From contig CAWGZR010000012.1 of the NCBI GenBank assembly GCA_963827165.1, forward strand, positions 1 to 64,000: a stretch of DNA of 64,000 nt. Reading direction: 5' to 3'. How positions within the stretch are numbered: position 1 is the first letter of the stretch; the number at the start of each line of letters is the position of its first letter. The notes beneath the pieces are model-generated. The model ran no database searches. It was not told where the DNA came from and was given only the letters and a program-made list of their open reading frames with translations. Position numbers and translations under genes: made by a program. This stretch comes from Candidatus Bathyarchaeota archaeon. Lineage in GTDB: Archaea > Thermoproteota > Bathyarchaeia > Bathyarchaeales > Bathycorpusculaceae. Of this stretch, positions 4,235 through 28,794 are shown in pieces.

Positions 4235-4236
4235 CT

Positions 4237-5289: not shown

Positions 5290-5300
5290 ACTCATTTTAC

Positions 5301-7349: not shown

Positions 7350-7404
7350 TTTTAACAGGTTGTTGATTTATCAGCAAACATTTAAAGTTATATTTGGCGA
7401 TAAC
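7350..7404. promoter_or_regulatory. 55-bp divergent promoter region between atpI and atpF
   Basis: Palindromic TTTAAA at 7381-7386 lies within ~20-35 bp of both start codons. Confidence 0.45.
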
Positions 7405-7713: not shown

Positions 7714-7715
7714 CG

Positions 7716-8345: not shown

Positions 8346-8350
8346 ATAAA

Positions 8351-10120: not shown

Positions 10121-11532
10121 TGACCATGGCGACGAAAACAGGAACCGGATTAGAGTATAAAGGAGTAGCTTCAATTTCAGGCCCAATTATCGTGATAGAG
10201 AACGTGCAAAATGTAGGATACGATGAACTGGTCACAGTTAGAACCCAAAACGGCGAAACGCGGTTAGGGAAAGTTATTGAAGTCTCCACAAAAGCAGTAA
10301 TTGTCCAAGTCTTCGAAGGAACCACAGGCTTATCACCAGCAGAAACACGAACTCGCTTCCTTAATCATTCTCTGGAAGTCCCGGTGTCCACAGAAATGCT
10401 CGGTCGAGTCATGAACAGCTTTGGCGAACCCATTGACGGACATCCTCGATTCTTCACTGAAGAAAAACGCGACGTAAACGGTTATCCATTAAACCCCGTT
10501 TCCCGAGAGTACCCAAAAGAATTCATTCAAACAGGTATCTCCGCGATTGATGGATTATGCAGCCTAGTCCGCGGACAGAAACTGCCCGTCTTCAGCGGCC
10601 CAGGGCTTGCGCACAATGAACTTGCCGCCCAAATCGTGAGACAAGCTCAGATTCGCAGCGGTGGCGAAGACTTTAACATAGTCTTCATTGCGATGGGTTT
10701 GGAACATGACGACGCTGCCTTTTTCCAAAGAAGCTTCGAAGAAACGGGCGCCATCAAAAACGTGGCAATGTTTCTTAATTTAGCGGAAGACCCCCCAGTC
10801 GAACGCATCATTACCCCCAGAGCCGGTTTAACATTAGCTGAATACTTGGCTTTTGACCAAGACCGTCATGTACTCGTTATCATGACTGATATGACTAATT
10901 ATTGCGAAGCTCTCCGGGAAGTCAGTGCTTCTATGGAAGAAGTGCCTAGCAGGAAAGGTTACCCCGGTTACATGTATAGTGACTTAGCCAGTATATATGA
11001 ACGGGCAGGGCGAATTCACGGAAAGAAAGGTTCTATTACGCAGATGCCAATTTTAACCATGCCAAACGACGATATTACCCACCCAATCCCGGATCTTACA
11101 GGTTACATTACTGAAGGGCAAATCGTTTTGTCTCGCTCTTTAGAGAAACAGGGAATCTATCCCCCAATTTATATTTCCACTAGTTTGTCTCGACTGATGA
11201 AAGATGGAATTGGTAAAGATAGCACCCGAGAAGACCACGCTAACGTTTCAAGCCAACTTTATTCAGCTTACGCTCAGTATAACTCGGTTAAATCATTAGT
11301 TACCATCATCGGCGAGGAAGGGTTAGGTCAAAGAGACAAAGAATACTTGCGCTTCGGCGAAGCTTTCGAAAAAACGCTCATAAACCAAGGCAAGAACGAA
11401 AACAGAACAATTGAGCAAACGCTTTCGATCGCTTGGGATGCACTTTCGCTGTTGCCTGACGAAGAATTGACCAGCATAAAGCCGGAATACATCCAGAGGT
11501 ACTATCCAAAATTTGATAGTGAGGTCAAGTAA
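10120..11532 (+). CDS. atpB: A/V-type ATP synthase subunit B
   Basis: [29 protein letters not shown]. Confidence 0.97.
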
Positions 11533-11537
11533 AAAAA

Positions 11538-12167
11538 TTGTCCTCTGAAAGTGTTAGCCCTACAAGGATTAACTTAATCCAGACGAAAAAGACGCTTAAG
11601 CTTGCGGAGTCCGGCCGCGAAGTTCTTGAGCGGAAACGCGACATTTTGATACGTGAGCTCAGGAACAGCATTTATGAGGCCGAAAGAGCTCGCGAGGAAT
11701 TGGTAGCTGCTCTAGCGAAAGCTTACCAAAACCTACGGGAAGCCAACATAGCAAAGGGTTCCGAAGTTATTGCTAACGTGGCTTTAGCTTCAAGCGCTGA
11801 AGCCCATTACCAAATTGATACCAAAAGCATTATGGGCGTAACCATTCCCAACGTAGAATTTCAAGGTAAACCTAACGTGAAACCCGACTACGGATTCGCA
11901 AGCACTAGCGTAGAATTAGACAAGGCCTTTAAACAATTCTACAGTGTCCTAAAGTTAATCGCTGATTTAGCTAAAGCTGAAGGAGCCACATTTCAAATTG
12001 CCAATGATGTGCGGAGGACTCAACGTCGTGTCAACGCCTTAAACTATGTTCTTATCCCGCGATACCGAAATATAGCCAAATCGATCGAACTAGTTTTGGA
12101 AGAAAAAGACCGCGAAGAATTTGTTAGGACTAAAATAATTAAACGTGTAATTAAGGAACGTGAATAA
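11538..12167 (+). CDS. atpD: A/V-type ATP synthase subunit D
   Basis: PTRINL, LERKRD, TQRRVNAL, LEEKDREEF. Confidence 0.95.
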   Translation: MSSESVSPTRINLIQTKKTLKLAESGREVLERKRDILIRELRNSIYEAERAREELVAALAKAYQNLREANIAKGSEVIANVALASSAEAHYQIDTKSIMGVTIPNVEFQGKPNVKPDYGFASTSVELDKAFKQFYSVLKLIADLAKAEGATFQIANDVRRTQRRVNALNYVLIPRYRNIAKSIELVLEEKDREEFVRTKIIKRVIKERE

Positions 12168-12612
12168 AATGAAGTTTAGTAGCCAAACTATACAAAAAAT
12201 CTTAATTCCCACCGACGGGTCAGATTACAGTATACATGCAGCAGAATACGGTATCAGCATTGCCAAAGTGCATGAAGCACAAATTATGGCTGTTTATGTC
12301 CTTGACGAGGTCGTTATTGAACGGTTTACAAAAATAACTGAACGCGAGGATATTGAAAGAGAACTAAAAAACGATGGTCAACGATACCTCAACTATGTTT
12401 TGAGCTTAGCCGAAAAAGAAGGTGTCAAAGCAACTTCACTGATTGCAAAAGGAAGACCATTCGAGCAGATTGTGCACCTATCTAATGGTTTAAACATGGA
12501 CTTAATTGTTATGGGTTCATTTGGAAGAAGAAGTGCAGAAAGAATCCTTATCGGCAGCGTTTGTGAGCGAGTGATTGAATATGCCAATTGCCCTGTTCTA
12601 GTTGTGAAATAA
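12160..12612 (+). CDS. Universal stress protein (UspA family)
   Basis: KILIPTDGS, DLIVMGSFG, IGSVCERVI...CPVLVVK. Confidence 0.92.
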   Translation: MNKMKFSSQTIQKILIPTDGSDYSIHAAEYGISIAKVHEAQIMAVYVLDEVVIERFTKITEREDIERELKNDGQRYLNYVLSLAEKEGVKATSLIAKGRPFEQIVHLSNGLNMDLIVMGSFGRRSAERILIGSVCERVIEYANCPVLVVK

Positions 12613-12634
12613 GACTGGTTGGTAACTAAATCTG

Positions 12635-12811
12635 ATGAAAAATGACAAGATAGATCAGGATTTTCAGGATTTTAATTTGGATCTTGAGCAGGCCACGCAA
12701 CGAGAAATAATGAATGTTCGAGATGAAATTAAGGCACTCAAAGAGACGGTCGCTGAGATAGGTGTAAGCTTGGAACCGCTCTCTCCAATGAAGAGAAAAG
12801 GTGTTAGCTGA
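12635..12811 (+). CDS. Small 58-aa putative coiled-coil protein (below ORF-track cutoff)
   Basis: Manual translation MKNDKIDQDFQDFNLDLEQATQREIMNVRDEIKALKETVAEIGVSLEPLSPMKRKGVS; fills the usp-atpK gap on the same strand. Confidence 0.5.
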   Translation: MKNDKIDQDFQDFNLDLEQATQREIMNVRDEIKALKETVAEIGVSLEPLSPMKRKGVS

Positions 12812-12865
12812 TAAAAAAGTTAATAGCTAAGTTGTTGTTTGCTGTCGTATCGAAGTGAACATAGA

Positions 12866-13207
12866 TTGAAACCTAAACTAATATTCCTCGTTTTACTTCC
12901 GCTGGTACTTCTACCTCTCATTGGCGTAGCTGCCGGATTAACAGTGACTACTCTTCAAAATCAAACTGCGGCACCTACTTCTGCAGGAGCTTACGATAAA
13001 CTGGGCATTGCAATTGGAGCTGGATTAGCTATTGGCTTATCAGGATTAGGCGCGGGGCTTGCAATTTCCGCTGCTGGTAGTGCCGCAATCAGTGCGTTAG
13101 CCGAAAAGCCTGATACATTCTTTAGAAGTTTCTTGATTGTGGCATTGGCTGAAGCATTGGCAATTTACGGTTTGATTATGGGTATTCTGCTCTGGCTTAA
13201 ACTTTAG
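12866..13207 (+). CDS. atpK: A/V-type ATP synthase subunit K (c, proteolipid), single hairpin with N-terminal hydrophobic leader
   Basis: GAGLAIGLSGLGAG helix, ALAEALAIYG with ion-binding Glu; TTG start inferred. Confidence 0.92.
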   Translation: MKPKLIFLVLLPLVLLPLIGVAAGLTVTTLQNQTAAPTSAGAYDKLGIAIGAGLAIGLSGLGAGLAISAAGSAAISALAEKPDTFFRSFLIVALAEALAIYGLIMGILLWLKL

Positions 13208-15380: not shown

Positions 15381-16829
15381 GTGCTTAGTTTGCAGGCAAA
15401 TTCACTGTCATTCACAATTGTTCCAGAAATTCCAATGGATTACATCAGCAAGTTCTATGAATACATGAACAAGTTTTTTCTTGCTCCACAAAAAACCCGT
15501 TATGCAGATATTTCCTCGGGCGATTTTTCCATCAGTTACTCGATTTTAGGTGTCGACGGGAAAAAAATTATAAACGTTCATGCTTCCGGCAAAGATGCAA
15601 TCAACGCTGTTATTGAGCCAATCCAATCAGGGGTTCCAGAAGACGAGATCTCCAAGTCGAAAGAAGACGTCAAGATAGCAATAGATGCTTTCGAGGAACA
15701 AGTTAGAAAGAACAGCCTTTTCTTCGCTTGGAGAGAAGGAGAATCAATCGTTCCTGAAGCGGTGACAGGCAAAGAAAACAAATCTTTGCGCCGCATTTTT
15801 TTGGAGACTCAGATCATACTTATTGCGGCGTTCATGAGCGTGGGAATTTTGCTGTTCCTGGTCATTGAGCAGTTTGACGCTTTGTACGTTCCACTGGTTC
15901 CAGTTGTGCTGCTTGCCATCCAATTCGTCTTTGTTTTCTATTCAAACAAAATTGTTGCCCGATCAGCAGATTGGCACATTACACAGAGAGACCCATACAT
16001 CCACATCTTGCAATATCCCCTTTCCGTAGCAACGGATGACGCGAACAAGAAACTTTCGAAAAACGAGTTAACTCAGCTTAAGCAAGAAATCTATAAAGTG
16101 ACCATAGCTCAGAACGGCGAACTTGACTGTGAAAAGGCGCACGATATATTCGCAAAGTTTGGTATTAATTGCAAGACTCAAGATTTGATTGCCCGAAAAG
16201 TAAACGTTTACGACATCGTACAGAGGACTGCCGACAAGTTCGCCTACAAAGTACCCGAGATAATCGTATCTAACACATTGCTGCCAAACGCGGCTGCTTC
16301 AGGGCCTACACCAAGTCGAGGCATAGTTTTGATTACGACAGGAACGTTCTTGCAGCTTAATGATGAAGAAATTGAATCTGTCTTAGGACATGAGTTCGGG
16401 CATTTGAAGGGACACGACCCACTTTGGCTGTACGGTTTATCTGCGATTCAGTACCTTTTCTGGTTCTACATAATCTTTACATTGATAAGAACCAGCTCGA
16501 CGCTTCTGCTAGTCATTTATTTGTGGGCTCTGTTAACACTAACCTATTTTGTCTCAAAGTTCTTTGAGGCGAGAGCCGACTTAATTTCAGCGATGGTTAT
16601 TGGCAAACCGAAGATTCTTGCTGATTCACTTGAAAAAATTGGTTTCCAAAGATTGCTTTACGAGCGTGTGCCATCTTTCCGTTTCCAAGAATGGTTAAAC
16701 TGGGATCCCCACCCGCCGATCTATTTCAGAATTGCAAGACTACGAAACTTAGAGGACCCGTCAAAAATTAAACATCCTCTTCGCCAATCGGCACGGGAAG
16801 TGATAAGAGGCTTCTTCAACAGCTTCTAA
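15381..16829 (+). CDS. M48/HtpX-family membrane zinc metalloprotease with N-terminal extension
   Basis: PNAAASG, VLGHEFGHLK (HExxH), FEARAD, HPP..FRIARL. Confidence 0.9.
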   Translation: MLSLQANSLSFTIVPEIPMDYISKFYEYMNKFFLAPQKTRYADISSGDFSISYSILGVDGKKIINVHASGKDAINAVIEPIQSGVPEDEISKSKEDVKIAIDAFEEQVRKNSLFFAWREGESIVPEAVTGKENKSLRRIFLETQIILIAAFMSVGILLFLVIEQFDALYVPLVPVVLLAIQFVFVFYSNKIVARSADWHITQRDPYIHILQYPLSVATDDANKKLSKNELTQLKQEIYKVTIAQNGELDCEKAHDIFAKFGINCKTQDLIARKVNVYDIVQRTADKFAYKVPEIIVSNTLLPNAAASGPTPSRGIVLITTGTFLQLNDEEIESVLGHEFGHLKGHDPLWLYGLSAIQYLFWFYIIFTLIRTSSTLLLVIYLWALLTLTYFVSKFFEARADLISAMVIGKPKILADSLEKIGFQRLLYERVPSFRFQEWLNWDPHPPIYFRIARLRNLEDPSKIKHPLRQSAREVIRGFFNSF

Positions 16830-17018
16830 AATACAAACTTTCAAAAAATTTTTATTTTTTGGCTGCTTCGCGCACATCAACCGCAACGTATAAAATAGGA
16901 TAAATCACTGTTGTGACAATAAAATCAGTAAGCCCTCAGCAAGCAAATTGTTGCACGATTGTGTAGCCACATACCCTTAAATCACAATTTGAGAGATAAT
17001 TCATTAGAAGGTGCTTTT

Positions 17019-17855
17019 TTGCCAATTAGCAGGCGAGAATTTATTAAAATCGGCGCGGCTGGCGCAATAGGTTTTGGAGTGGCCAGCGCCATTGAAATTC
17101 CAATCTTGGAAAGCGTAATCAGTAGCAAAAGTAACGATGTTAAGAATTTACAAAAACAGGTCACTTCCGCCTCGCAGGCGTTTCTTGCTCTAAATAAAAA
17201 CGAGCAGGCAGAACTTGAGGCCATGGTTGAAACAATAATTCCCACTGATTCAAACGGACCAGGAGCAAAAGAAGCCGGCGTGATATTTTTCATAGACCAT
17301 CAACTCGCAGGAGAATATGGACATAATGGGCGAATGTACATGCAAGGGCCCTTTGTGATGCCTGGCCAAGCAGGTCCCATAACCGTCAACGGTGTTACTT
17401 ATTCAGACGGTGTACCCGCACAGTCGTATCCAGGCCCAGCTTACCAATATAACTTTTTGATGAGGGAATTTTGGAGAAACGCTCTTTTGGCTGTGGAAAC
17501 CTACTCAAACAGCGCTTATGGCAATAACATTGAAAACTTGAGCTCTTCACAAATTACGCAAGCATTAACCGACCTGTATAACAATAAACCAGCAACTTCG
17601 GACTTCAACAATATAGTTCCTCAGGATTTCTTCAACGAATTAATCTTTATGACTTGGTCTGGCTTCTTGATGGATCCCATCTATGGAGGCAACGCTAACA
17701 TGGTTGGTTGGACGCTTACAGGTTTCACAGGCGCTAACAGGGGCGACAGTTTTAAAGAGGGTAGAAACGTCCTGACGCTTATGGTGGCCTCCAAACCCAC
17801 AAAGTGGCCTCCGCATAGCTTAGCAGAATATGAACAATCATATGGAGAAATGTGA
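17019..17855 (+). CDS. Gluconate 2-dehydrogenase subunit 3 (gamma)-family protein with twin-arginine motif
   Basis: SRREFIK Tat motif, IIPTD..GPGAKEAGVIFFIDHQL, DPIYGGN..MVGW...GF.G; TTG start inferred. Confidence 0.88.
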   Translation: MPISRREFIKIGAAGAIGFGVASAIEIPILESVISSKSNDVKNLQKQVTSASQAFLALNKNEQAELEAMVETIIPTDSNGPGAKEAGVIFFIDHQLAGEYGHNGRMYMQGPFVMPGQAGPITVNGVTYSDGVPAQSYPGPAYQYNFLMREFWRNALLAVETYSNSAYGNNIENLSSSQITQALTDLYNNKPATSDFNNIVPQDFFNELIFMTWSGFLMDPIYGGNANMVGWTLTGFTGANRGDSFKEGRNVLTLMVASKPTKWPPHSLAEYEQSYGEM

Positions 17856-17864
17856 GGTAAGAAT

Positions 17865-19676
17865 ATGAGTCAAATCATAAACCATCCTTCTGCCGACGTC
17901 GTCATTCTCGGCATGGGCGCAATGAGCGGCGTTATCGCTGCTGAACTAACAAAAGCAGGTTACAACGTTGTAGGCTTGGAAAGAGGGCCTAAATGGGATT
18001 TCGCAACTGACTTCAATGACACAAAATACGACGAGTGGGGCATTGGCTATATGCGCAAATTCGATATTAACCTGGGCATAACCACCTCTACCATAAGGAA
18101 TAACATCAACCAGTATGCATTGCCAATTCGCAGAAACACCATCGGCTATCCCGGACAAATTATTTCAGAAGGTTGGGGCGTAGGCGGTATGGCCCAACAC
18201 TACGGTGGCGCGATGGGACGATATCCTCCATGGGTCTATACGATGTATTCAAGCACTGTCAGCAGATATGGCTTGGACTTTCTCAATTCAGTGGTGCCTC
18301 ACCAAGATATTCAGGATTGGCCAATGACCTATGATGACTATATGCCTTACTACGAAGAATGGGAGAAGATGTGGGGGGTGTGCGGTACCAATCAGGGGTC
18401 ATTACTTCCAGGCTTCACCAGTTACAATTATCCGATGCCTCCTAACCCTATTACACCTGTTGCAACCCTATTTCAAAGTGCCACCCAAGCCTTGGGTTAC
18501 AGCCCCTTTATTGCCCCCACAGCGTTAGCAACTCAAGGATATGTTAACTCATACGGAGTCGGTGTAAATGGATGCATTTATGAGGGGTGGTGCGGTGCAG
18601 CATGCAACTATGTCTGTGAAAATGGTGCAAAAGCCAATTCAGACTTCAGAACTGTTCCTTATGCGCTAAACACCGGAAAGTTGGATCTGAGACTCAACAG
18701 TTACGTTTTCCGTCTAGACACAGACTCTAGTGGTAAAGTCACCGATGTTAGGTATTACGACCAAAATGGTAACATAAACGTTCAACCAGGCACAGTTTTC
18801 TTCAATGGCTTATGGGGCTTCAACATAATCAAACTTATGCTAAACTCAGGGATAGGCAATCCATACAATCCCACAACTGTAAAAGGCTCTCTTGGAAGAG
18901 GAATAACTATGGGAGTGCAACCGTTGGATGGAAGCACGAGATATGCATTCGGAACTCTTGAAAACATCGGAGGTAACGGATATCCCGCAGGCAATGCCAC
19001 TGGCGGCGGAGTTGAAATTCTGGACTTCGCAGATGACTATTTTGACCACACGGGATTAAACTTCATCGGAGGAGCAGTATTATCAGCCGGCGGTTATTTG
19101 GGAAGTGGACCTGGCAACTTTAATTTTTATGCTAGTGGACCAGCACCCAGCCTGATCGGAAGTACATTCAAAGCAAGCCTTAAAAACGCGTTTTTGCCGA
19201 CAAAAACCCTTGTCGTTCTTTCCCCTTCAGGAATGGAACCTCCTATAACTGACTGGAATGTAGATTTAGACCCCAACTACACGGACATTTACGGTGACCC
19301 TCTGCCTAGAACCACCATAGATTGGACTGCAAACACCTATAACTGCGCAAACTATCTAGCACCAAAAATGGCCGCCATACTTACAAAAATGGGTTGCACC
19401 AACATCACCGTGACTCCAGCCACAACAGCCATGAGCCATGTTCCAGCTTGGCAGGCGCACATGAGAGGCGGCGCAAGGGCAGGCACCGACCCAGCGACGT
19501 CAGTTTTCAACATGTGGCAGCAATGCTGGACGAGCCAAAACCTTTTTGCTGCAGGGGAAATCACTAACACGACAGGCGATAATACTACAGCCGGAACCCA
19601 TGGTGCAGGTCCAGGATCTTATGTCGCCGCAGAAGGTATACAAATGTATCTAAAAAGCCCCGGACCTCTTGTTTAA
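17865..19676 (+). CDS. GMC-family FAD oxidoreductase (gluconate 2-dehydrogenase alpha-like)
   Basis: VVILGMG...VVGLERG, GVGG..HY, QDWPMTYDD..PYY, Cys cluster C..EGWC...C...C, LDP...D.YG.P, HMRGGAR.G.DP..SV. Confidence 0.9.
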   Translation: MSQIINHPSADVVILGMGAMSGVIAAELTKAGYNVVGLERGPKWDFATDFNDTKYDEWGIGYMRKFDINLGITTSTIRNNINQYALPIRRNTIGYPGQIISEGWGVGGMAQHYGGAMGRYPPWVYTMYSSTVSRYGLDFLNSVVPHQDIQDWPMTYDDYMPYYEEWEKMWGVCGTNQGSLLPGFTSYNYPMPPNPITPVATLFQSATQALGYSPFIAPTALATQGYVNSYGVGVNGCIYEGWCGAACNYVCENGAKANSDFRTVPYALNTGKLDLRLNSYVFRLDTDSSGKVTDVRYYDQNGNINVQPGTVFFNGLWGFNIIKLMLNSGIGNPYNPTTVKGSLGRGITMGVQPLDGSTRYAFGTLENIGGNGYPAGNATGGGVEILDFADDYFDHTGLNFIGGAVLSAGGYLGSGPGNFNFYASGPAPSLIGSTFKASLKNAFLPTKTLVVLSPSGMEPPITDWNVDLDPNYTDIYGDPLPRTTIDWTANTYNCANYLAPKMAAILTKMGCTNITVTPATTAMSHVPAWQAHMRGGARAGTDPATSVFNMWQQCWTSQNLFAAGEITNTTGDNTTAGTHGAGPGSYVAAEGIQMYLKSPGPLV

Positions 19677-19723
19677 ACCTTTTTTAGCAACAAAATTTTT
19701 CAAAGACTTAAGAGGAAAAGCAA

Positions 19724-20278
19724 ATGCAAAAGCAACAGCTAAATTCATTCGTAGCGATTGTTCCACCGAAGTATGTTTCGGCACTTTTGATACTTCACGA
19801 AAAATTTGAAGGCAAAAACATTGAGTGGGCAGTAAGCGGAGATCTTGCCGAAGCTTTGAAAGCGGTCAGAGTTAAACCTGACTGTATAGAAATCGTGACC
19901 TCTGAAAAAGGCGCTGAACAGATTTGCAGTGCAGTCTCCGAATTTAATCCTCAAAAAATTGAGTATCGAATCCAACAGCTTCAGCGCAACGCTTTGATTG
20001 GCGGAAAGGAATATCCCGTTTTCATCAGGAGCCACTATTTCGAGTTCGAGGTTAATGGAATCAAAGTAAAAGTTCACGGTGATTTACAATTTGAAGTCGA
20101 CGAGTGGGGTTGGGGCGATAAATTTGAATTCGTTCCTGTTTCAATCTACATTGTAAACAAAAAAACTTCCTTGGTTCCTCTTAACACAATATATGAACTT
20201 TACGAAAACTTAGGATGGAGTGACAGGGCGGAAAAAATAACCGATGTAACTGTGAGCCGCCAACGCTTTCACCGCTGA
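19724..20278 (+). CDS. Hypothetical protein, degenerate nucleotidyltransferase-like
   Basis: WAVSGDLAEAL.AV.V.PDCIEIVT resembles the GS...D.D NTase motif with substitutions. Confidence 0.5.
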   Translation: MQKQQLNSFVAIVPPKYVSALLILHEKFEGKNIEWAVSGDLAEALKAVRVKPDCIEIVTSEKGAEQICSAVSEFNPQKIEYRIQQLQRNALIGGKEYPVFIRSHYFEFEVNGIKVKVHGDLQFEVDEWGWGDKFEFVPVSIYIVNKKTSLVPLNTIYELYENLGWSDRAEKITDVTVSRQRFHR

Positions 20279-20815
20279 AAAGTCTTGAGCAAAAAATTCT
20301 TTAGCGCTTACAGCTACCAGGCTGTGTCGAGAAAGTTGGATGACGTTTCGATAGCCGGTCGGCTTTTGCTCCGTTGGGGTGCAAATAGGAATCGAAGCAT
20401 TTTCTCATTCTCATATGCGGCATTAAAGAATTCGCAAACATAGGTTGAAAAAGGAAACAGCCTGCTTGCAAACAAACCTACATTTCATTAGGCTGGGTTA
20501 ACATGGCGCTTGAATAGGCGTTTTAAGACTTTGTTGCAGTGATAATACAGGGCGGCATATCAGTACTTGGTGTGAGAAATCCACACAAAAAAGTGCTTCA
20601 TCCAGAGCCTCCTCCACGTTTCCATTTAAAGCAGGGCGCAACAAAAAGGAGAATCGATTAACTCAACCGCTTACTTATCACTCAACAGATATCAAAGAAA
20701 GAATGATTTAATCAATAAACTTGAAGCATTTTTTCTTCAGAATATTTTTAAAGGCAAAATTATAGCGTAAATAGAAAATAAGCTATGAATATATAAAAAT
20801 AAAGAACGAAAAGGC

Positions 20816-21388
20816 TTAGAAAAGCCCTTTAACTTTGGTTTTTTGCTTGGTTAAGAAAACTGCGAAACCAGTCACTGCGACCGCCATGAACATCAACGTT
20901 ATTGTTAAGGGAAACTCCGGAACAGTTGATTGTACTACGACTTTTCCATACATGCCAAGTGCAATGTGTCCGGGGAATGTGCATACGTAGTAGAAGTTGC
21001 CTGTTTGGGTAGGAGTGAATTCGACTGATCCTGAACTTCCTACGGGGATGTAATTAGTTAAGTCGATGCCTGCTTCCCATAGTGGTGAAGTACTTGCTGT
21101 TTCGGATGTTGTGATTTCCCATGAGTGTAACATGCCCATATTACTTACGTTGTAAACAGTCATGTTATAGGTTGTGCCGTCTACAAGTGTGAGAGTTGGC
21201 CCAGGCGAAGTAATTGAGCTTGCGCTGTTTCCGAAGCCATAAGCGCTTGATGATACTTCTCCAGCATACATCGTTAACTGTGTGACACTTTGCGCTTTAA
21301 CTGGTACTGTGAAAGCTGATATTAGCCCGATAGTGAGTGCAATTGAAAAAATAATGGCCAATGCTAAACTTTTTCTCCTTGAAAACAT
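20816..21388 (-). CDS. Secreted blue (type 1) copper protein, sulfocyanin/rusticyanin-like, with PEF-CTERM anchor
   Basis: Signal peptide; His (LHSW) plus CTFPGHIALGM ligands; C-terminal VPEF, TM helix and basic tail. Confidence 0.88.
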   Translation of the reverse strand: MFSRRKSLALAIIFSIALTIGLISAFTVPVKAQSVTQLTMYAGEVSSSAYGFGNSASSITSPGPTLTLVDGTTYNMTVYNVSNMGMLHSWEITTSETASTSPLWEAGIDLTNYIPVGSSGSVEFTPTQTGNFYYVCTFPGHIALGMYGKVVVQSTVPEFPLTITLMFMAVAVTGFAVFLTKQKTKVKGLF

Positions 21389-21459
21389 TTAAAATGCCTC
21401 GAAGTATCCTAGCGTTAACTATGTTTAAAAGGTTTTCTGTGATGGTTGAAACTCGCAGG

Positions 21460-22338
21460 TTAAACTAACAATAATTTATCGATCACTAAAGCAAACATTA
21501 AACATGCTAGATAGGGAATTGAAGCAAGAAAGACTTTGAAAGCGTACGTTTCTTGACTTGAAAAAAGTAAACCTCGATTTTGAAACAGAAAGGCACCTCC
21601 GGCAACCGTTGCAATGCCTAAGTAGATGAACCCGGTTAAATGAAAAATGAAGAGTAGGAATGAAAAAGCCACCGTCAAAACGTTCAACCAGAAAACGACC
21701 TTCGAAGCCTTGGCCACGCCGACCTTTACAGGCAACATAGGAATTCCAGCGTTTTTGTAATCATTTATTTTTTTAATGGCGAGTCCCCAAAGGTGGCCTG
21801 GTGTCCAAAGAAAATCAAGCGTGGCAACAAGCAGAGGCAGCAGACTTATGCTGTTGGCTGCTGCTGTCCAGCCGGCCAGTGCAGCAAAGCAGCCGGCGAA
21901 GCCTCCTATAACGACATTCCAAGGGCTGGCGCGCTTTAGCCAAGCAGTGTATATTATTAAGTAAAAGACGGCCCCGAGCGCAACCATTACAAAAGTCAAC
22001 AGGTTAAACAGCAAGTATGAAAGGGTAAAGCTGGCCGAAATCATTGCTAATCCAAAAATCAGCGCTTTATTTGACGCCACTTCACCAGCTGGAATCGCCC
22101 TCCTCGCGGTCCGTGACATCAATTTGTCGATGTCTTTATCGTAAAAGCTGTTTAAGACGCCGCAGCCGCCCGCAGCCAAGTAGCCTACAGCGGCGAACAA
22201 GACAAGTTTAAACCATGTGATGGCTGGAAACGCTGCAAGAACAAAGCAGGTAACGCCGACAAACAAGTTTAACAGCGTTACCTTGGGCTTCGTAAGTTGA
22301 AAATACTTGTTTATTTTCTGGTTCATAATTGGCTTCAC
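21460..22338 (-). CDS. ctaB: Protoheme IX farnesyltransferase (heme O synthase)
   Basis: LTKPKV, N..YDKDID.LM.RT..R.IPAG, YT.WLKR, WTPGHLW.LA, DY..AGIPMLPV. Confidence 0.95.
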   Translation of the reverse strand: MKPIMNQKINKYFQLTKPKVTLLNLFVGVTCFVLAAFPAITWFKLVLFAAVGYLAAGGCGVLNSFYDKDIDKLMSRTARRAIPAGEVASNKALIFGLAMISASFTLSYLLFNLLTFVMVALGAVFYLIIYTAWLKRASPWNVVIGGFAGCFAALAGWTAAANSISLLPLLVATLDFLWTPGHLWGLAIKKINDYKNAGIPMLPVKVGVAKASKVVFWLNVLTVAFSFLLFIFHLTGFIYLGIATVAGGAFLFQNRGLLFSSQETYAFKVFLASIPYLACLMFALVIDKLLLV

Positions 22339-22380
22339 TCAAATCTTTACGAGACGTAGACCCGATTTTTCGGAACGCGA

Positions 22381-22908
22381 CTAAGGAAAAGCTGGACCTG
22401 TCACCGAGCTAACCACAACTGCACCGTACATCCCAGCTGCAACATCCCCTGAAACAGGAGAAATATACCAATAGGTAAAAGCGGCGTTGTCAGGCGTAAA
22501 AATAACCGAACCTGCCTGACCCGGCTGAAGCGGATTGCTTGCTGAACCGACCACGGCGCTAAAAAGTGTGGGAGCTCCATCTTGGGGCATTGTGGTTATT
22601 GCAAATGCATGAGGCAGCTTTCCGACATTCACAACCGTAAGATTAACGACATCTGAGGTTGAAAAGCCAATGGTGGGTCCAGGCGACGTCAAGTTTGTTG
22701 GAGATGTGCCGAAGCCGAATTTGCCATTTGACAGCTCTCCCTCATAAAGCAGGATAACCACCTGTGTCTTGTTTGGACTGGAGTTTACCAATGGGGCCTG
22801 GAGATTAAAAATCAACATAGATGCGGCTCCTACAAGAAACGCTATGGCTAGAATTCCTATCAGAATAAGAGGCAAATGTGATTTGAAAGTGTTAGCCATG
22901 GCGGTCAC
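22381..22908 (-). CDS. Membrane-anchored cupredoxin-fold protein lacking the type-1 Cu Cys and second His
   Basis: Paralogous to 20816..21388 (LYEGE..FGFG....LTSPGPT); ligand loop reads ISPVSGDVAAGM. Confidence 0.7.
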   Translation of the reverse strand: MTAMANTFKSHLPLILIGILAIAFLVGAASMLIFNLQAPLVNSSPNKTQVVILLYEGELSNGKFGFGTSPTNLTSPGPTIGFSTSDVVNLTVVNVGKLPHAFAITTMPQDGAPTLFSAVVGSASNPLQPGQAGSVIFTPDNAAFTYWYISPVSGDVAAGMYGAVVVSSVTGPAFP

Positions 22909-23174
22909 AGCCCCATTGACATCGACATTATAGCTGCAACCATGAGGAAAATTATGCCTATAACGGCGGCTACGGGTAAGATGGCGAGCCGCCAGTCTTC
23001 GTAGCGCAGATGCTGATAGTACATAGCTATTGTTATGGCTTTTCCAGAAGAAATCAAGAGTATAATCACAACAAACAAAGACGCCGCTCCCGCTAAAGAC
23101 CGCGTTGCTACTTCAGCGACAGTTGCAACTACGAGCGCAAACCAAATTCCAACGTACATTTTCATTGTAGGCAT
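22905..23174 (-). CDS. Heme-copper oxidase subunit IV (CtaF/CyoD-like)
   Basis: Three TM helices, K...IAMYYQHLRYE motif, operon position. Confidence 0.85.
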   Translation of the reverse strand: MPTMKMYVGIWFALVVATVAEVATRSLAGAASLFVVIILLISSGKAITIAMYYQHLRYEDWRLAILPVAAVIGIIFLMVAAIMSMSMGL

Positions 23175-23184
23175 ATTTTTTCAC

Positions 23185-23958
23185 CTATATCAAATAGAAG
23201 AGTGGGAAAAGAAACATCCAGACAATATCGACAAAATGCCAGTACAAGCCAATATTCTCCACAGCGGAATGCTTCGTGCTGGTAAATCCGCCTCTAAAAG
23301 ATCTAAAAATAAGATATCCTACTCCAACTAACCCCCCTCCGACATGCACGGCATGAAGACCTGTCAACACAAAGTAAGTGGAGCCAGGCAAACCGCTGCT
23401 TATGGTGAAGCCGTTTCGATAATATTGGGGCCATTCAACTCCGAGCTTTATCACCAGAAAGGAAGCGCCTAAAACAAACGCGCTTACCAACCCGATTCTT
23501 AGACCTTTTATGTTGCCCGCTCTGATTGAGTAAAGCGCGTATACTATCGCCAAGCTGCTTGTAAGTAAGATAATGGTGTTACTCATCCCGAGGATGACAT
23601 CGTGCGTTTGAGTGGCAACAGGCCAAGAACTGCTGGAAAGTCGGACATAGGCGTACGCAACGATAAGTGATCCAAAAATCAGTATTTCAGACATTAGGAA
23701 AAGCCAGATCCCGAGTTTCTCTTTACTTAAAAACTCAAGAGGCCACTTTTCTTCAAGAGATTCTTTGAATTCAGCAAATTTTTCATTAGCGCCCTCTTTG
23801 AACAGCATGAACACTGCTGCACCAATAACTACTGCTCCCGCTATGGCGAGCGGCAGGAAAACTACAATCCCAAAAAGCACCAAAGCAATTCCTGCACCAA
23901 GTATTATTGGCGTGTAGCTAGATTTGCGTTCTTCAGGTTTCCCATAATCTTCAGTCAA
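23185..23958 (-). CDS. coxC: Heme-copper oxidase subunit III
   Basis: [41 protein letters not shown]. Confidence 0.93.
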
Positions 23959-25634
23959 TTTTCAGCCCCCGAATTTTTCCTTAGAGCACTAGATTTGTCT
24001 GCCGCTTCAGCTGAAGTTCCGTTTGGTGGTGTGCAATGCCCCGTCATGCACCAGTACCATCGGCTAGATCGCGTATTGCCTGGCGGATCAACCGAAGTCT
24101 CCGTAATCGCCGCCGAATTCGGCATTGCCAGTGACCCACGGTAATCGCCTGTCCACTCTAATTCTCTTCCTTCCCACGGATTAGAGACTGAGGTTGGGGG
24201 TTTTCTTAAACTTAAAATAAGGTTTAAAACCGCCAATGCAGCTGCTGGTCCGAATATGTATGCGCCGATGGTTGCGGTTAAATTTGAAGTTGCTAATCCT
24301 GAGGTTGTAGTGTAAGTAGATATTCTTCTTGGCATGTCCAACATGAAGAAGTATGGAAGATAGAGAATGTTGAATCCCGCGAAGGAGACAATGAAAGTTA
24401 TGACGCCCCATTTTTCGCTGTATTGCCTTTTAGTTATTTTTGGCCACCAATAGTAAAGACCGGCAATGAGTGCAAATAGAGTGGTTCCAGCCATTACGTA
24501 ATGAAAGTGACCGACAATCCAGTAGGTTCCGCTAAAAGCGTAGTCTAAAACTGGAAAGGCCTGCAAGACGCCAGTGATGCCGCCTAGAGTTACAGTAAAT
24601 ATGGCGGCTAAGCAGTACAACATGGGAGTGTTCAACTTTATGTTGCTTTTGTAAAGTGTAAGGACTAGCGCTAGAACCACTCCTTCGAAAGGTACGGAAA
24701 TTGCAAGAGTGGTGAAAGAAAATGTTTGCAACACGCTGTAGTTTACGCCTGTTGTAAACATGTGATGCATCCAAACGCCAACGCTCAGAAAGGTTACGAG
24801 CGCAAATTCGACAAGAAATGCTGTTCTTGAGAATATGGGCCTCTTTGCAAAAGTTTGGAAAACTTCTGCGATTACGCCCAGGGCGGGAAAAACCACAATG
24901 TAAACTTCGGGGTGACCGAAAAACCAGAAAAGCTCATCCCATAAAATGCCTCCGCCCTGACTTGAGCTAAAGAAGACGGTGCCCAGAAATCTATCGCTTG
25001 AAAGCAGTATTAAGCCTCCGGCTAGGGGCGGGAACGCGAAAATCGCTAGTGCCATCGTGAAAAGAATCGACCAAGTGAATATTGGTAGTCGCCTCCACGT
25101 CACCCCTTTGGCTCGATTTCTCACGATTGTCGTGATAAAATTAATTGAGCCCATAGTTACGGAGAGAGAGAAAAGTACTAAAGCTAATACGGCCAGGGTC
25201 ATTCCTGCTTGGGACGTAAATTCTATTGTGTTAAGAGGTGCATAGAGCGTCCAGCCGGTGTTGGGTCCACCACCAGGCAAAAATACAGTGCTGACAAGCA
25301 TTATGCCACTGAATAGGTACGTCCAGTAGCTTAAGGCGTTCATGCGTGGGAAAGCTAGGTCTTTTGCGCCGATTTGCAGCGGCACAATATAGTTCGCTAT
25401 CCCGACGCCTAGGGGCGTAAGAACCCACAGTATCATTAACAAGCCGTGGAGAGTCACGGTTTGGTCGTATGTGAAGGGGGAGAGGAAATTGTTGTTTGGA
25501 ACAGCAAGCTGTGTTCTCATCATTTCCCCAAATGAACCGGCAACTGCCATGAAAAATATGGCAGTCACGATGTAAAGGATGCCTATCTGCTTATGATTGG
25601 TTGTACTTAACCACTCTTTTATTGAAAATACGAT
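23955..25634 (-). CDS. coxA: Heme-copper oxygen reductase subunit I (A1-type motif); start codon uncertain
   Basis: [47 protein letters not shown]; all six His ligands present. Confidence 0.96.
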
Positions 25635-25639
25635 AGTTC

Positions 25640-26314
25640 TTAGCCTCCTGTCGTTGTTGCGTTTGTTGGCATTTGGCTGGCAAGCCACTGGTTATACGCG
25701 GTTTGACTCATCACCGTCATGGTTGCATCCATGAAAGTGTGGCCAATTCCGCAAAGTTCCTTGCATTCGATATTGTAGGTCCACTCCTGGTTTCCCGTCG
25801 CAATTGGCGTGGTCACCCATATTACGTTGTATCTACCAGGGATTGCCTCTATACTTACCCTGAACTGAACCAAGTACAAGTTGTGCATTACATCAGTGCT
25901 CGTGACGTTGAACATCACTGTTGTGTTTCCCGGTAGGTTCAGTTGATCTAGTGTGTTTACGCCGTCTGGGTATCCAAATCTGAAAGCCCATTGAAAAGCA
26001 GTTACATCAATCACTAAGCCTTTAGAGGCCCCAGCGGGTTCAAAACGCGCATTAGGAGTAAGTTGATAGGACGCTACGACCAGACTGACTAAGATTATGA
26101 TGGAAATCGTGGCAAAAATCATGTTTTCTCTGGCCCGACCTTTTTTGAAACCGAAGTCTGGAATAAATTTGGGCTGACCTTTTTGTTCTCGGTACCTAAC
26201 CATAAAAAAAATCATTGCCCCAATGACAATTGCCAGAGCAATTAACGCTATGGCCGCTGCTAGATCAAAGAAATGATTCCAACCTGAAGCCGAAATAGGT
26301 ACGGGTTGCGACAC
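25640..26314 (-). CDS. coxB: Heme-copper oxidase subunit II with CuA centre
   Basis: Two TM helices, FQWAFRF.Y, STDVMH, CKELCGIGHTFM; no CxxCH. Confidence 0.93.
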   Translation of the reverse strand: MSQPVPISASGWNHFFDLAAAIALIALAIVIGAMIFFMVRYREQKGQPKFIPDFGFKKGRARENMIFATISIIILVSLVVASYQLTPNARFEPAGASKGLVIDVTAFQWAFRFGYPDGVNTLDQLNLPGNTTVMFNVTSTDVMHNLYLVQFRVSIEAIPGRYNVIWVTTPIATGNQEWTYNIECKELCGIGHTFMDATMTVMSQTAYNQWLASQMPTNATTTGG

Positions 26315-26704
26315 GATTAATCTCCTTTTTCAAAAAGCGTAAAACCAAACGTCAGGATAACGGCCCAAATAAACACGTCCAAGCCGCCGCTCACGCCGCA
26401 TTCCCAGTTTTATGGGTCTGTATTACTTCATGGAAGTAATAGCTATCTGCTTGAGATGGCCTAGTTATAGTGAGGTACAGTGAGGTTCTGTTTTCTATAA
26501 TTTGTGCTGCCATTTCATTTTCTCCAAAATCCACACACAATAACTAAACTCAAAATTCAGCGGTTTAAAGTTGTGTTGGTGACACGGTACAGTCACAAGT
26601 AAGGGGTTGCTAACTTGGTGTTGATGTCTAAGCCGCTTGCAATAATGAAAAAAGTGAGCCGAACCCATGTAAAGTTCGCACTCAAGTGAATAGTGGATGG
26701 TCTG

Positions 26705-27067
26705 CTAGTTCTTAGAAGTGGCTTTCGCGTCTGTCTTTCCCGTTGATTTTAGTTGATTGCGTATTATGAGAAAGACTATTGCCAATAGCGCGATGCCAAT
26801 TATAGCCGAAATAATACCATTCACTATCCAGGCTAGCCATGCAGGGACGAACATCATCCAATATTTCAGCGAACCGATAATTATGAAGATAGATGCTGTT
26901 CCGATGAAGGAAGATGCAGTAGCCACCAGAATCATTGTAATTATTGATATTACAAGGAGTTTTTTGAGTCGTGCTTTGGCAGCAGCTTCCATTTTATGCA
27001 GGTATTCTATGACGGCAGCTTTTATTTCGTCTAGGAAATCTTCGACGGTTTTCTTGGTCGATGACAT
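26705..27067 (-). CDS. Small two-TM membrane protein, function unknown
   Basis: Amphipathic N-terminus followed by two hydrophobic helices. Confidence 0.55.
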   Translation of the reverse strand: MSSTKKTVEDFLDEIKAAVIEYLHKMEAAAKARLKKLLVISIITMILVATASSFIGTASIFIIIGSLKYWMMFVPAWLAWIVNGIISAIIGIALLAIVFLIIRNQLKSTGKTDAKATSKN

Positions 27068-27129
27068 ATAATCACCTTTCTAACCTTTGTCTGGCTTGGA
27101 TGTCGCGTTGGAAACAATCGTGAATCACT

Positions 27130-28794
27130 CTATTTCTTGTGAAACTTTGCGATCTCTTTAGAAATCAAAAGTTCATCTATGCGTAGCATGAGCGCTGAAA
27201 CTTCGTAGCCCCTTCGGATGATGGAACGTTTTACTCTTGCGGGTTCAAGGCATACCCCTTCTTCACAGCCATGCTCCGCCACGCCGCAGTTGCAAGACCC
27301 ATCTGCATGGCGCCTGCCAAGCTCAAGCATTGTATCTCCAGGGTTCAAACCATAATTTTCCGCTAAACATCTTGGTGCCTCCATTAACGCGTCTGCAAAG
27401 AATTCAATGGGGATCTGTTCTCTGCCCGAAAATGATTTGGCGTATCTTTTGAGTTCCTGGGCTATCTCCGTTTCTGTTGCGCCTGCACCTGGCAAAACCC
27501 TGCTGTCTTCGCCCAGGAGCTTAAGAATGGTTAGGCTGTTTCGGATGGCAGCTTCCAACTCATCTATCGCCTGAGGCGTAGATCCTCTTAACATAAAAGT
27601 TGACCCATTGCAGCCCTGAACTGTCACGATTTTTTCCGAGCCTATTTGCTCAGCGCAGAGTTCATCAGCAACTCCCAAGTCTCCTTCTGAAAGCTGAGAA
27701 AGCTTCCCAACGATTCTAGCGCCAGTAGCCTCAGAGACTGCTTCTGTATCCTTTTTATCAACTCTATCCAAAGCAAAAATGCCCTGGGCCACTAAATAGT
27801 CCTTCAAATTCGCTTCAAGAAGCTGCTCACACAACAAAACGTTGGCTTTAAGCTCAACAAGCTTTTTTAGTGGCTCCAGCTTCAGACGAGTCTCAGTTTC
27901 CTTGTAAGCCGCTAATTGATCCGCATTTTTGATGTTTAGCCTAATTGGGGTCGGTCCTTCACCTTTCATTTTGAGCTCCAACCGATTTATCCCAGGTTTC
28001 TCACTTGAAATGGCAATTCGAAGGGCATGAAGTCGGTCAGGCATATTCGGATGAGCTTTTTCCTTTTTTAAAACAACTCCATTAATTAAGACTGACTCTT
28101 CGACGCAGCAACCTGGCTTTTTTAGAAATCTGACATTGTCCTTGTCGAATTTCCCTTCGGAAGACGCAGATTTGTATGCTTGCATAATCATCGAGAGTAT
28201 TGGTTGGGTTAAAAGGCCTCTTTTGCAGTCCACGATATTCAAGATGTCGCTATTTACGCTGTTCAATTTGGTTGCATTTTTGTCTATTATTTCCAGTGCC
28301 TTTTTATGAGCCAAATTGTAGCCATGGACGATTGTGTTGGGGTGAATTTTCATGTTTAGGAGTTCATCTGCCTTTTTTAGTAGAGCTGACAAGAAAACTA
28401 CGAAAGAAGCTACTCCGTCACCCGCTTCTTCCCGATGCATTTTGGCGGCTTCAGCAACTATTGTTGCAGGCGGATACAATATTGCCAACTCATCCAAAAT
28501 TGCAATAGGGTCCTTGGTCACTTTGACAACTTCTTCAGGACCACGATTATACGCAATGAGCTTGTATGCGCCTTTGGGACCTAATGTGCTTCGCACCTTG
28601 TCCGCTGCAAAAACGGCTAAGCGCAGGTTATCGCGCCAAGTGTCTTTTCCGGTCTTGCGTTCAATATGCTTAGAAATCACAGAATTTTTAGTAATAATGT
28701 TCTGCATTACATAACCTACGTGGCACCACTCGCTGTTTTGCATGGTTGGAAAACAGGGAGGTCTGCGCATACTTGCTTCGCTTTCAAGGCTCAT
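27130..28794 (-). CDS. Divergent group II chaperonin (TCP-1/thermosome family); start uncertain
   Basis: STLGPKG, GDG motif, LRG, PGAGATE, EP..VK, LRIDELL. Confidence 0.85.
   Translation of the reverse strand: MSLESEASMRRPPCFPTMQNSEWCHVGYVMQNIITKNSVISKHIERKTGKDTWRDNLRLAVFAADKVRSTLGPKGAYKLIAYNRGPEEVVKVTKDPIAILDELAILYPPATIVAEAAKMHREEAGDGVASFVVFLSALLKKADELLNMKIHPNTIVHGYNLAHKKALEIIDKNATKLNSVNSDILNIVDCKRGLLTQPILSMIMQAYKSASSEGKFDKDNVRFLKKPGCCVEESVLINGVVLKKEKAHPNMPDRLHALRIAISSEKPGINRLELKMKGEGPTPIRLNIKNADQLAAYKETETRLKLEPLKKLVELKANVLLCEQLLEANLKDYLVAQGIFALDRVDKKDTEAVSEATGARIVGKLSQLSEGDLGVADELCAEQIGSEKIVTVQGCNGSTFMLRGSTPQAIDELEAAIRNSLTILKLLGEDSRVLPGAGATETEIAQELKRYAKSFSGREQIPIEFFADALMEAPRCLAENYGLNPGDTMLELGRRHADGSCNCGVAEHGCEEGVCLEPARVKRSIIRRGYEVSALMLRIDELLISKEIAKFHKK

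Follow-up and report, generated by a model that had tools for sequence, protein, structure and literature searches.

Here we describe a respiratory gene cluster in a 64-kb stretch of DNA from an archaeon assigned to Candidatus Bathyarchaeota (assembly GCA_963827165.1, contig CAWGZR010000012.1, positions 1 to 64,000; the whole stretch is called the window hereafter). Positions 17019-26314 encode a four-subunit A-type heme-copper oxygen reductase with a CuA entry site, a heme O synthase (ctaB) and two cupredoxins, cupB within the operon and cupA outside it. A three-gene cassette converges on them from the opposite strand, with genes for a dehydrogenase of the GMC superfamily that would bind flavin adenine dinucleotide (FAD), its small subunit and a third protein. 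Judged from sequence, this is a known kind of oxidase with a plausible new variant of electron input. We read the whole, with a confidence a little short of even, as the terminal-oxidase cluster of a soil or peat bathyarchaeon, in which the cassette would be an accessory input through cupA.

The oxidase and its copper proteins

The listing of open reading frames (ORFs), together with Pfam and NCBIfam scans, gives the minus-strand order cox2-cox1-cox3-cox4-cupB-ctaB-cupA. Subunit II (25640-26314; PF00116, E 5.8e-11; TIGR02866, 134.3 bits) is followed by subunit I (23955-25688; PF00115, E 2.9e-132), subunit III (23185-23958; PF00510, E 5.5e-27) and subunit IV (22905-23174; PF03626, E 4.7e-9), and these by cupB (22381-22908; Pfam Cu-oxidase_3, E 3.3e-10), ctaB, also named cyoE (21460-22338; TIGR01473, 261.9 bits against a cut-off of 210.3), and the blue copper protein cupA (20816-21388; PF00127, 30.3 bits against 21.2). 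On the plus strand, the small subunit (from 16959 or 17019 to 17855), the GMC gene (17865-19676) and the third cassette gene (19724-20278) run towards them in the ORF listing. A preliminary description of this DNA had located an oxidase operon, ctaB, a blue copper protein and a FAD dehydrogenase pair with a twin-arginine translocation (Tat) signal, and every one of these genes is where it had been placed; but both cupB and the third cassette gene had been overlooked.

For comparison, COX1 was searched in species-representative genomes, which yielded 79 loci. Thirty-four of them were taken as bathyarchaeal-type by shared gene order, namely the best 29 together with L031, L038, L043, L049 and L064. 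The data cover 64 kb of this genome and 20-kb stretches of its relatives. The oxidase gene order recurs in the 34 loci wherever the contig extends, so the arrangement is not due to chance. Aligned to 7rh5_R (E 3.9e-120), cox1 presents the six His ligands of the two hemes and CuB, the cross-link Tyr and the Glu of GHPEVY. The window has this motif, as have 33 of the 34 loci, the exception being the fragmented L064, and its Glu is what we take to be the A1 signature of A-type oxidases. The CuA ligands of cox2 (H..C-x-E-x-C-x3-H-x2-M) are complete in the alignment to subunit II of Rhodobacter sphaeroides (3om3_B); such ligands belong to oxidases with one-electron donors and not to quinol oxidases. 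Pfam cut-offs are passed; the NCBIfam equivalog cut-offs are missed (CtaD_CoxA, 548.5 against 670.75; CoxB, 134.3 against 147.7). No COX15/CtaA family member was found among the scanned window ORFs, and ctaB is the only heme synthesis gene in the cluster. Altogether, we are highly confident in the identification of the oxidase and the cupredoxins.

Two residues, which we presume to be the D-channel entrance Asp and the K-channel Lys, are replaced. At the first position all bathyarchaeal loci have lost the Asp found in most Nitrososphaerales and haloarchaeal loci, with Gln in the window, its clade and L022, and Arg in most of the others. At the second, the window has Val, and Lys is absent from all archaeal loci, aerobic lineages included, most of which carry an acidic residue two positions before the site. 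These replacements would fit an oxidase that mainly scavenges O2 and protects an anaerobic Wood-Ljungdahl metabolism, rather than one that supports aerobic growth. So would the trait rows (0,1,1,0,0,0,1,1) of SPRUCE 561, 602 and 459, the nearest named relatives. Read with the header of sheet 2 of the supplement, if that header applies, these rows score cox-type O2 respiration together with the archaeal Wood-Ljungdahl pathway and acetogenesis (PMC12296737). Nevertheless, the cluster has all four subunits, the pumping Glu, carriers of its own and ATP synthase genes alongside, and the K-channel substitution is common to Nitrososphaerales and haloarchaeal loci, which are those of aerobes; we regard a mainly scavenging role as quite unlikely. 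As an observation apart, the C-terminal tail of cox1 (about 35 residues, ~23955-24090) carries a conserved WYWC-x4-C in the window, L001-L004, L024 and L025; it has a partial form in L016 and is absent from the other bathyarchaeal loci.

The cupredoxin tree is divided by a 100% split into two families, in-operon cupB (29 rows) and outside cupA (28 rows). In cupA, H88, C136, H141 and M146 are invariant among the outside cupredoxins (26/26), and the protein has an N-terminal signal with RR and a C-terminal membrane tail. The tail scores 17.6 bits across the whole 25-position profile of PEF-CTERM (TIGR03024), whose cut-off is 23; the same profile gives 15.9 bits on the tail from L020 and no match on that from L001. 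In turn, cupB has an N-terminal membrane anchor. The window protein and those of seven relatives have Ser for the copper Cys and Asp for the His; besides L001-L004, L024 and L031 these include L028 as a separate case. The degenerate clade of the tree, with Ser or Ile at the Cys site and Asp at the His site, comprises 7 rows with 99% support. The C..H..M set is kept in 19 of 30 relatives; L008 and L027 have Asn for His, and two more copies are truncated ORFs. The copper ligands have accordingly been lost at least two times, in the 7-row clade and separately in L028, and the gene remains intact, which suggests a new role other than redox. A cupB devoid of the Cys and the His leaves cupA as the only possible blue copper carrier in the window clade, where the outer cupredoxin alone retains a predicted type-1 copper site. 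The likely electron donor to CuA is cupA. A third cupredoxin-like ORF lies far from the cluster (61420-61932, minus strand; PF13473, 25.0 bits against a cut-off of 27); it has a His and two Cys and no Cys-x-His-x-Met set.

Among solved single-domain proteins, rusticyanin is the nearest to cupA (1a8z, E 3.7e-15), as it is the nearest to cupB, and the His-Ser pair and C-x4-H-x4-M spacing of cupA match His85, Ser86, Cys138, His143 and Met148 of rusticyanin as given in PMC10654088. In the account of its gene order there, the rusticyanin oxidase cluster likewise places a rusticyanin-like cupredoxin between the oxidase subunits and ctaB. The window cluster differs in having no Cyc2, Cyc1 or ctaA, in the lost ligands of cupB, and in missing the rusticyanin equivalog cut-off (TIGR03095, 50.3 against 146.7). 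The sulfocyanin models are missed too, by cupA (PF06525, 17.8 against 21; TIGR03094, 23.4 against 168.4) and by cupB (PF06525, 16.6 against 21), and some relatives bear a precomputed PF06525 label. From the kinship with rusticyanins and the shared ligand spacing, and from the bogs and soils that the relatives come from, it could be argued that the cupredoxins are reduced directly by extracellular one-electron donors of acid peat, such as Fe(II) or reduced humic hydroquinones, as has been proposed for rusticyanin and for the sulfocyanin of Ferroplasma, the dehydrogenase being a bystander. The equivalog scores of cupA, however, fall far under both cut-offs, and no equivalents of Cyc2 or Cyc1 are found; we consider this explanation improbable.

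Feeding an oxidase by copper proteins is by itself no novelty. Of 25 loci of Nitrososphaerales or Thaumarchaeota type, 17 have a type-1 cupredoxin-like ORF after cox3; none of 14 bacterial loci does, and these show cytochrome c motifs in its place. A copper relay replacing cytochrome c is thus the norm in related archaea. The window shares with the known archaeal systems (sulfocyanin in Sulfolobales and Ferroplasma, the plastocyanin-like proteins of Nitrososphaeria, and halocyanins) a CuA oxidase whose operon contains or adjoins a blue copper gene, and the absence of CxxCH. It departs from them in missing the SoxE Pfam and sulfocyanin cut-offs, in having two paralogous cupredoxin families per locus, in showing no Rieske or cytochrome b gene near window-type loci, and in the GMC cassette, which stands beside the oxidase only in bathyarchaeal loci (23/31 against 0/45).

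A cytochrome-free dehydrogenase cassette

The three-gene cassette is an archaeal version, without cytochrome c, of the bacterial membrane-bound FAD/iron-sulfur (Fe-S) sugar dehydrogenases. The GMC label given earlier to its catalytic subunit (603 residues) stands at the level of the superfamily, on Protein Data Bank (PDB) sequence and fold matches. The Pfam match is weak (GMC_oxred_C, 17.3 bits, below the cut-off of 24.6), and the family proper is that of the FAD/Fe-S "direct electron transfer" dehydrogenases, an assignment of which we are confident. The best PDB sequence matches by phmmer are the large subunit of fructose dehydrogenase (7w2j_A, E 2.5e-15) and the FAD-dependent glucose dehydrogenase (FAD-GDH) of Burkholderia cepacia (6a2u_B, E 2.8e-10). 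An AlphaFold2 model (predicted local distance difference test, pLDDT, 68.4; predicted template modelling score 0.78; cofactor loops low) finds the same two enzymes by Foldseek, as 8k6j_A (E 5e-31; template modelling, TM, scores 0.67/0.75) and 6a2u_B (TM 0.66/0.74). The next-best folds are pyranose oxidases, at about 0.5, and a C-glycoside oxidoreductase. The "sugar(-acid)" substrate of the preliminary description amounts to a guess at family level.

Six residues, C237, C243, C247, C251, H112 and H532, are invariant in 30/30 homologues, several of which carry Nitrososphaerales names. The four Cys coincide in alignment with the Fe-S Cys cluster of fructose dehydrogenase, with a spacing offset by an insertion, and H112 with the FAD-loop His. 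In the B. cepacia FAD-GDH, three Cys bind a surface 3Fe-4S cluster that passes electrons to a multiheme subunit, and a fourth forms a disulfide with the "hitchhiker" subunit that bears the Tat signal (PMC6719666). Among the homologues, two groups of GMC proteins can be told apart. Group II has a fifth Cys, and exactly one Cys occurs in 13 of 14 group-II small subunits; the group-I pairs, including that of the window, have neither (4/4), the window small subunit lacking any Cys after its RR motif. This covariation fits an inter-subunit disulfide such as that between alpha-Cys213 and gamma-Cys152 of B. cepacia (PMC6719666). With the fifth Cys so assigned, four are left for the cluster in both groups, which might then possibly be of the 4Fe-4S type.

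The small subunit (PF13618, E 3.6e-25) belongs, by its sequence family, to the gluconate 2-dehydrogenase subunit 3 "hitchhikers" and carries a predicted twin-arginine signal (SRREFIK), in which R25, R26, F28, I29 and K30 (RR-x-FIK) are invariant in 21/21 orthologues. An identical protein of 278 residues in the searched collection starts 20 residues later than the ORF start at 16959, and 17019 is the likely true start. The GMC proteins begin at the FAD fold and have no signal peptide of their own. The third gene (184 residues) gives a model of pLDDT 89.5 whose best Foldseek match is the putative nucleotidyltransferase TM1012 (2fcl, E 4e-14, TM 0.72/0.84), and in the Atlas it falls with PF10706-like clusters from Bathyarchaeota and Nitrososphaerota. 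It is present in 23/23 GMC-positive relatives and in 0/8 GMC-negative ones, and its product, a cytoplasmic protein of nucleotidyltransferase fold, possibly has a role in maturation.

The likeness to the gamma-alpha-beta FAD-GDH of B. cepacia and to the fructose dehydrogenase of Gluconobacter japonicus, the nearest to the window GMC protein both in sequence and in fold, extends to several features: the equivalent of the covalent-FAD His, the Cys-rich loop at the 3Fe-4S position, the Cys covariation matching the known disulfide, and a twin-arginine signal on the small subunit with none on the catalytic one, from which export is predicted. Unlike them, the cassette has near it no multiheme cytochrome c subunit, which in the bacteria is both electron outlet and membrane anchor. 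Its Cys spacing is C-x5-C-x3-C-x3-C, with four Cys and no disulfide partner, and it has the extra nucleotidyltransferase-fold gene, an archaeal host, and a CuA oxidase and cupredoxins alongside.

Linkage to the oxidase and competing electron routes

Thirty-one of the 34 loci are informative, three being too short to judge. The cassette adjoins the oxidase in 23 of them (with a partial GMC segment in four of the 23) and is absent from 8. In 22 loci its distance from ctaB is 0.6-2.5 kb; in L028, where the oxidase block is inverted, it is still adjacent but on the opposite flank. In L002 and L024 it sits between ctaB and cupA, the latter having moved to its far side, and the adjacency is kept; in L023, L026 and L027 it is looser but kept, a thermosome gene being inserted. 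The outer neighbours vary (atpK, NfeD, TatAC, M48), and tatA and tatC adjoin the cassette in L023, L027, L028 and L043. Moreover, the two GMC groups, separated by a 100/100 branch, share the same site, the window's group being the one with Nitrososphaerales-named proteins. The L019 locus combines a cupA, a third gene, a GMC gene and a small subunit of the window-clade type with COX1 and ctaB of another clade. Approximately unbiased (AU) tests reject vertical alternatives (p = 6e-6, 2.6e-9 and 1.6e-61), for groups picked after the trees were seen. A first AU test of GMC, with L019 placed in group II, was badly posed (p = 0.375), and a test on L017, L018 and L019 together was used instead.

The mechanism that we propose would run as follows. 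The catalytic subunit would fold in the cytoplasm with FAD and its Fe-S cluster and would be exported by the Tat system, riding on the twin-arginine signal of the small subunit. Outside the membrane it would oxidise a sugar, polyol or glycoside, and its Fe-S cluster would reduce cupA directly, in the place held in bacteria by the multiheme subunit. By analogy with sulfocyanin, halocyanin and plastocyanin-like proteins of other archaea, cupA, tethered to the membrane outside the cell, would hand single electrons to CuA. Electrons would pass from cupA to CuA to O2 with no quinone pool, so that only the oxidase would conserve energy. This input would be accessory, with another, unseen donor also reducing the cupredoxins. 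For an exported enzyme in a cell devoid of c-type cytochromes, cupA is the simplest outlet. The comparative genomics lends moderate support to the step from dehydrogenase to cupredoxin, and we hold the reduction of cupA by the Fe-S dehydrogenase as tentative, somewhat under an even chance. The strongest form of the proposal is a respiratory short circuit free of quinone and cytochrome c, in which a Tat-exported FAD/Fe-S dehydrogenase would feed a membrane-tethered blue copper protein and then the CuA of a proton-pumping oxidase, in a Bathy-6 host whose nearest relatives also score for the Wood-Ljungdahl pathway; a four-gene module (cupredoxin, nucleotidyltransferase-fold protein, GMC and small subunit) would move between lineages. 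That form we find doubtful.

Several findings weigh against the proposed step. The cassette and the oxidase genes are convergent, and hence are not one transcript. Eight of the 31 informative relatives keep the oxidase, cupB and cupA with no cassette, which appears to have been lost repeatedly on the COX1 tree (L001; L003 and L004; L031; L020 and L049; L021; L011), and the PEF-type cupA clade comprises 3 cassette-positive and 6 cassette-negative loci. It follows that cupA is not dedicated to the dehydrogenase, that another donor must exist, and that the short chain drawn in the preliminary description could at best be one of several inputs. The thermosome and ATP synthase genes, too, are conserved neighbours, and the adjacency may therefore largely be inherited gene order. 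Since the transferred block of L019 is contiguous DNA, co-transfer need not mean co-function. No GMC or small-subunit match lies within 10 kb of COX1 in 45 non-bathyarchaeal loci, despite the Nitrososphaerales names borne by group-I GMC homologues. Natural fusions of GMC or the small subunit with a cupredoxin or cytochrome were not found among the best 120 of 411 and 607 matches, respectively, over lengths of 331-1056 residues for GMC and 163-522 for the small subunit; one long GMC match (P0076, 681 residues) ends in a low-complexity tail. Finally, a chain from dehydrogenase to cupredoxin leaves the role of the third gene unexplained. A complex prediction of GMC and the mature small subunit with the cupA domain as partner (score 0.00, mark 0.32, run without controls) speaks neither for nor against binding.

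The convergence, the 8 loci devoid of the cassette, the equally conserved thermosome and ATP synthase genes and the lack of fusions are also what would be expected if nothing but gene order were inherited. The dehydrogenase would then be an auxiliary redox enzyme that acts outside the cell in the decay of peat or lignocellulose, with O2, Fe(III) or the quinones of humics or lignin as its electron acceptors. The pyranose oxidases and the C-glycoside oxidoreductase among the next-best folds would suit such an enzyme, as would the AA3 and other redox enzymes that are reported from Bathy-6 genomes and proposed to act on lignin (PMC11697101). Yet the adjacency has outlasted an inversion, the relocation of cupA and changing outer neighbours, two deep GMC groups occupy the same site, and the predicted surface Fe-S motif, invariant in 30/30, speaks for a protein partner like those of the bacterial complexes. 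We think this alternative rather unlikely.

The absence of a Rieske or cytochrome b gene from the window, noted from the outset, is borne out, and that of CxxCH, then noted for the proteins of this region, extends to the whole window. CxxCH has no match in 310 stop-to-stop frames of at least 60 residues across the 64 kb, no Rieske-like CxH...CxxH motif was found in the window, and no cytochrome b or Rieske Pfam family among its scanned ORFs of at least 110 residues. In the 34 bathyarchaeal-type loci, 1635 frames hold 8 CxxCH matches, all in frames of 80-116 residues, with no credible cytochrome c ORF, and no Rieske-type CxH...CxxH of the kind seen in bacterial loci. A motif scan, and a Pfam scan of flank clusters that covered mostly genes present in at least three loci, found no Rieske, cytochrome b or cytochrome c gene near the oxidases of the relatives. 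A Rieske/cytochrome b complex or a quinone route may nevertheless exist elsewhere in the genome, which is a further point against the direct route through cupA.

Indeed, ammonia-oxidising archaea and haloarchaea couple their cupredoxins to Rieske/cytochrome b complexes. A conventional branched chain would place such a quinol:cupredoxin oxidoreductase elsewhere in the genome, and the dehydrogenase, if respiratory at all, would feed quinone through a membrane partner. That cupredoxins and oxidase persist without the cassette, and so need another donor, favours this arrangement, and 64 kb of one genome with 20-kb stretches of the relatives is a narrow view in which to find its genes. It is opposed by the empty Rieske and cytochrome b scans of the window, by the lack of Rieske-type motifs in the 34 loci, and by the report of a Bathy-6 without a known quinone synthesis pathway, though this concerns reactor lineages of another genus (PMC11697101). 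We would sooner doubt such a chain than accept it.

Host, published precedents and biological meaning

The bathyarchaeal origin of the window is borne out by COX1: the best 29 loci are 66-89% identical to it, 25 of them are labelled Bathyarchaeia or Bathyarchaeota, and the other four have the same gene order. Over the 34 loci, 30 bear such labels; identity is 66-89% to 31 of them and 50-52% to the fragmented L038 and L064, against ~44-53% to Nitrososphaerales, haloarchaeal and Aeropyrum loci and ~38-42% to bacterial ones. Some labels stand apart from a bathyarchaeal gene order: L004 is named Limnocylindrales, L013 Nanoarchaeia, L028 Sulfotelmatobacter and L029 "uncultured archaeon". With COX1 66-78% identical, L004, L013 and L028 are probably mis-binned or mislabelled. 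There is no sign of a chimera, which the preliminary description had raised as a concern; the guanine-cytosine (GC) fraction is 0.39-0.49 throughout the window, and the genes that L001 and L024 have in common with it stand on either side of the oxidase and are 80-89% identical in protein sequence. As a separate observation, the GMC gene is split in L009, L014, L029 and L064, and cox1 in L022, L024, L025, L027, L038 and L064, mostly in long-read assemblies. These splits could be homopolymer errors or gene decay, and bear on what "present" means there.

By sequence comparison, the nearest named relatives are Bathy-6 (B26-1/UBA233) peat metagenome-assembled genomes (MAGs): SPRUCE 561, 602 and 459 are listed in the supplement of PMC12296737 as GTDB o__B26-1, f__UBA233, g__PALSA-986, with 42-44% GC. 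According to Hou et al. (2023; PMC10321748), B26-1 corresponds to Baizomonadales and 40CM-2-53-6 to Houtuarculales. The described aerobic Houtuousia (o__40CM-2-53-6) was considered as host and rejected on this taxonomy of the nearest named relatives.

That a bathyarchaeon, of a group mostly portrayed as anaerobic, should respire O2 had been put forward as notable, but oxidase genes in the group are already in print (PMC10321748, PMC11619403 and a supplementary table of PMC12296737). The soil genus Houtuousia, without the Wood-Ljungdahl pathway and pyruvate:ferredoxin oxidoreductase, is stated to encode cytochrome c oxidases "exclusively" and to be (micro)aerobic (Hou et al., 2023; PMC10321748), a point restated in a 2025 review (PMC12694404). 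An aa3-type coxABCD is reported in the peat clades BC38-41 ("Ca. Paludivitaceae"), which are called facultative anaerobes (PMC11619403, of 2024). The window shares coxABCD with these soil and peat Bathyarchaeia, and differs in that its relatives are o__B26-1, f__UBA233, g__PALSA-986 (Baizomonadales/Bathy-6). For Bathy-6 (UBA233) itself, PMC11697101 presents the family as anaerobic, with no known quinone synthesis pathway and no terminal electron acceptor identified, and the main text of the SPRUCE paper discusses O2 respiration for a FEN-987 MAG only (PMC12296737). The use of an oxidase and of copper carriers is hence not new, and in the portions of these sources consulted an oxidase of this Bathy-6 genus is found in a supplementary table only.

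A literature search combining Bathyarchaeia with heme-copper oxidase returned nothing, subscription journals and preprint supplements being outside its coverage. With plastocyanin it returned work that, by title or abstract, is on other subjects, and gluconate 2-dehydrogenase with archaea and blue copper returned nothing. The term GMC oxidoreductase occurs in none of the papers listed for the archaeal group names. In a word search of the text of PMC10321748 and PMC11619403, none of the terms Rieske, complex III, copper and GMC came up, and among the entries of the PMC11619403 supplement, KEGG numbers for complex III and gluconate dehydrogenase led to cox rows only. A cytochrome-free dehydrogenase cassette beside cupredoxin and oxidase is accordingly our candidate for a new variant, undescribed in the searched papers.

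As for the surroundings, genes of the A-type ATP synthase lie on one flank of the region (3902-13207) and a thermosome gene on the other (27130-28794). Within it, the 537 bp that separate the third cassette gene from cupA hold short ORFs of no note and nothing else; transfer RNA and Rfam scans of the window gave no match, and a scan of 16500-27200 for promoters and terminators, with bacterial models ill-suited to archaea, stayed at or near shuffle level. A DUF420 (CtaM-like) membrane protein gene, apparently frameshifted, is found on the plus strand by tblastn at 55184-55686, in two segments of different frames that meet near 55609. Its assignment is backed by the L018 homologue, which matches PF04238 (E 4.2e-7); it adjoins cox2 divergently in 24 loci, and here it is 29 kb distant. 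Next to it, at 55792-60743 on the plus strand, a gene for an ABC ATPase comes after that of a 1403-residue protein in which a 4Fe-4S dicluster domain spans residues 930-985 and the C terminus is an FtsX permease domain; a 1005-residue homologue adjoins cox2 in L004, L011 and L019. Elsewhere in the window, a frameshift near 43900 divides a lysine 2,3-aminomutase-like gene (43493-44601, plus strand) into two halves, radical-SAM (43493-43915) and LAM_C (43951-44601), through either sequencing error or pseudogene formation, and two ammonium transporter (Amt) genes stand side by side at 36826-39690 on the minus strand.

The window's gene order is carried by the COX1 relatives at 34 loci in a collection with one genome per species. 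An oxidase fed by copper proteins would alter the models of carbon turnover by Bathy-6 at the oxic-anoxic boundary of peat. If the respiratory short circuit is true, Bathy-6 would gain the terminal electron sink that earlier genome work could not identify, and a blue copper protein would functionally replace the multiheme subunit of the bacterial "direct electron transfer" dehydrogenases. These are enzymes used in biosensors, for which a dehydrogenase that reduces a cupredoxin would represent a natural heme-free outlet.

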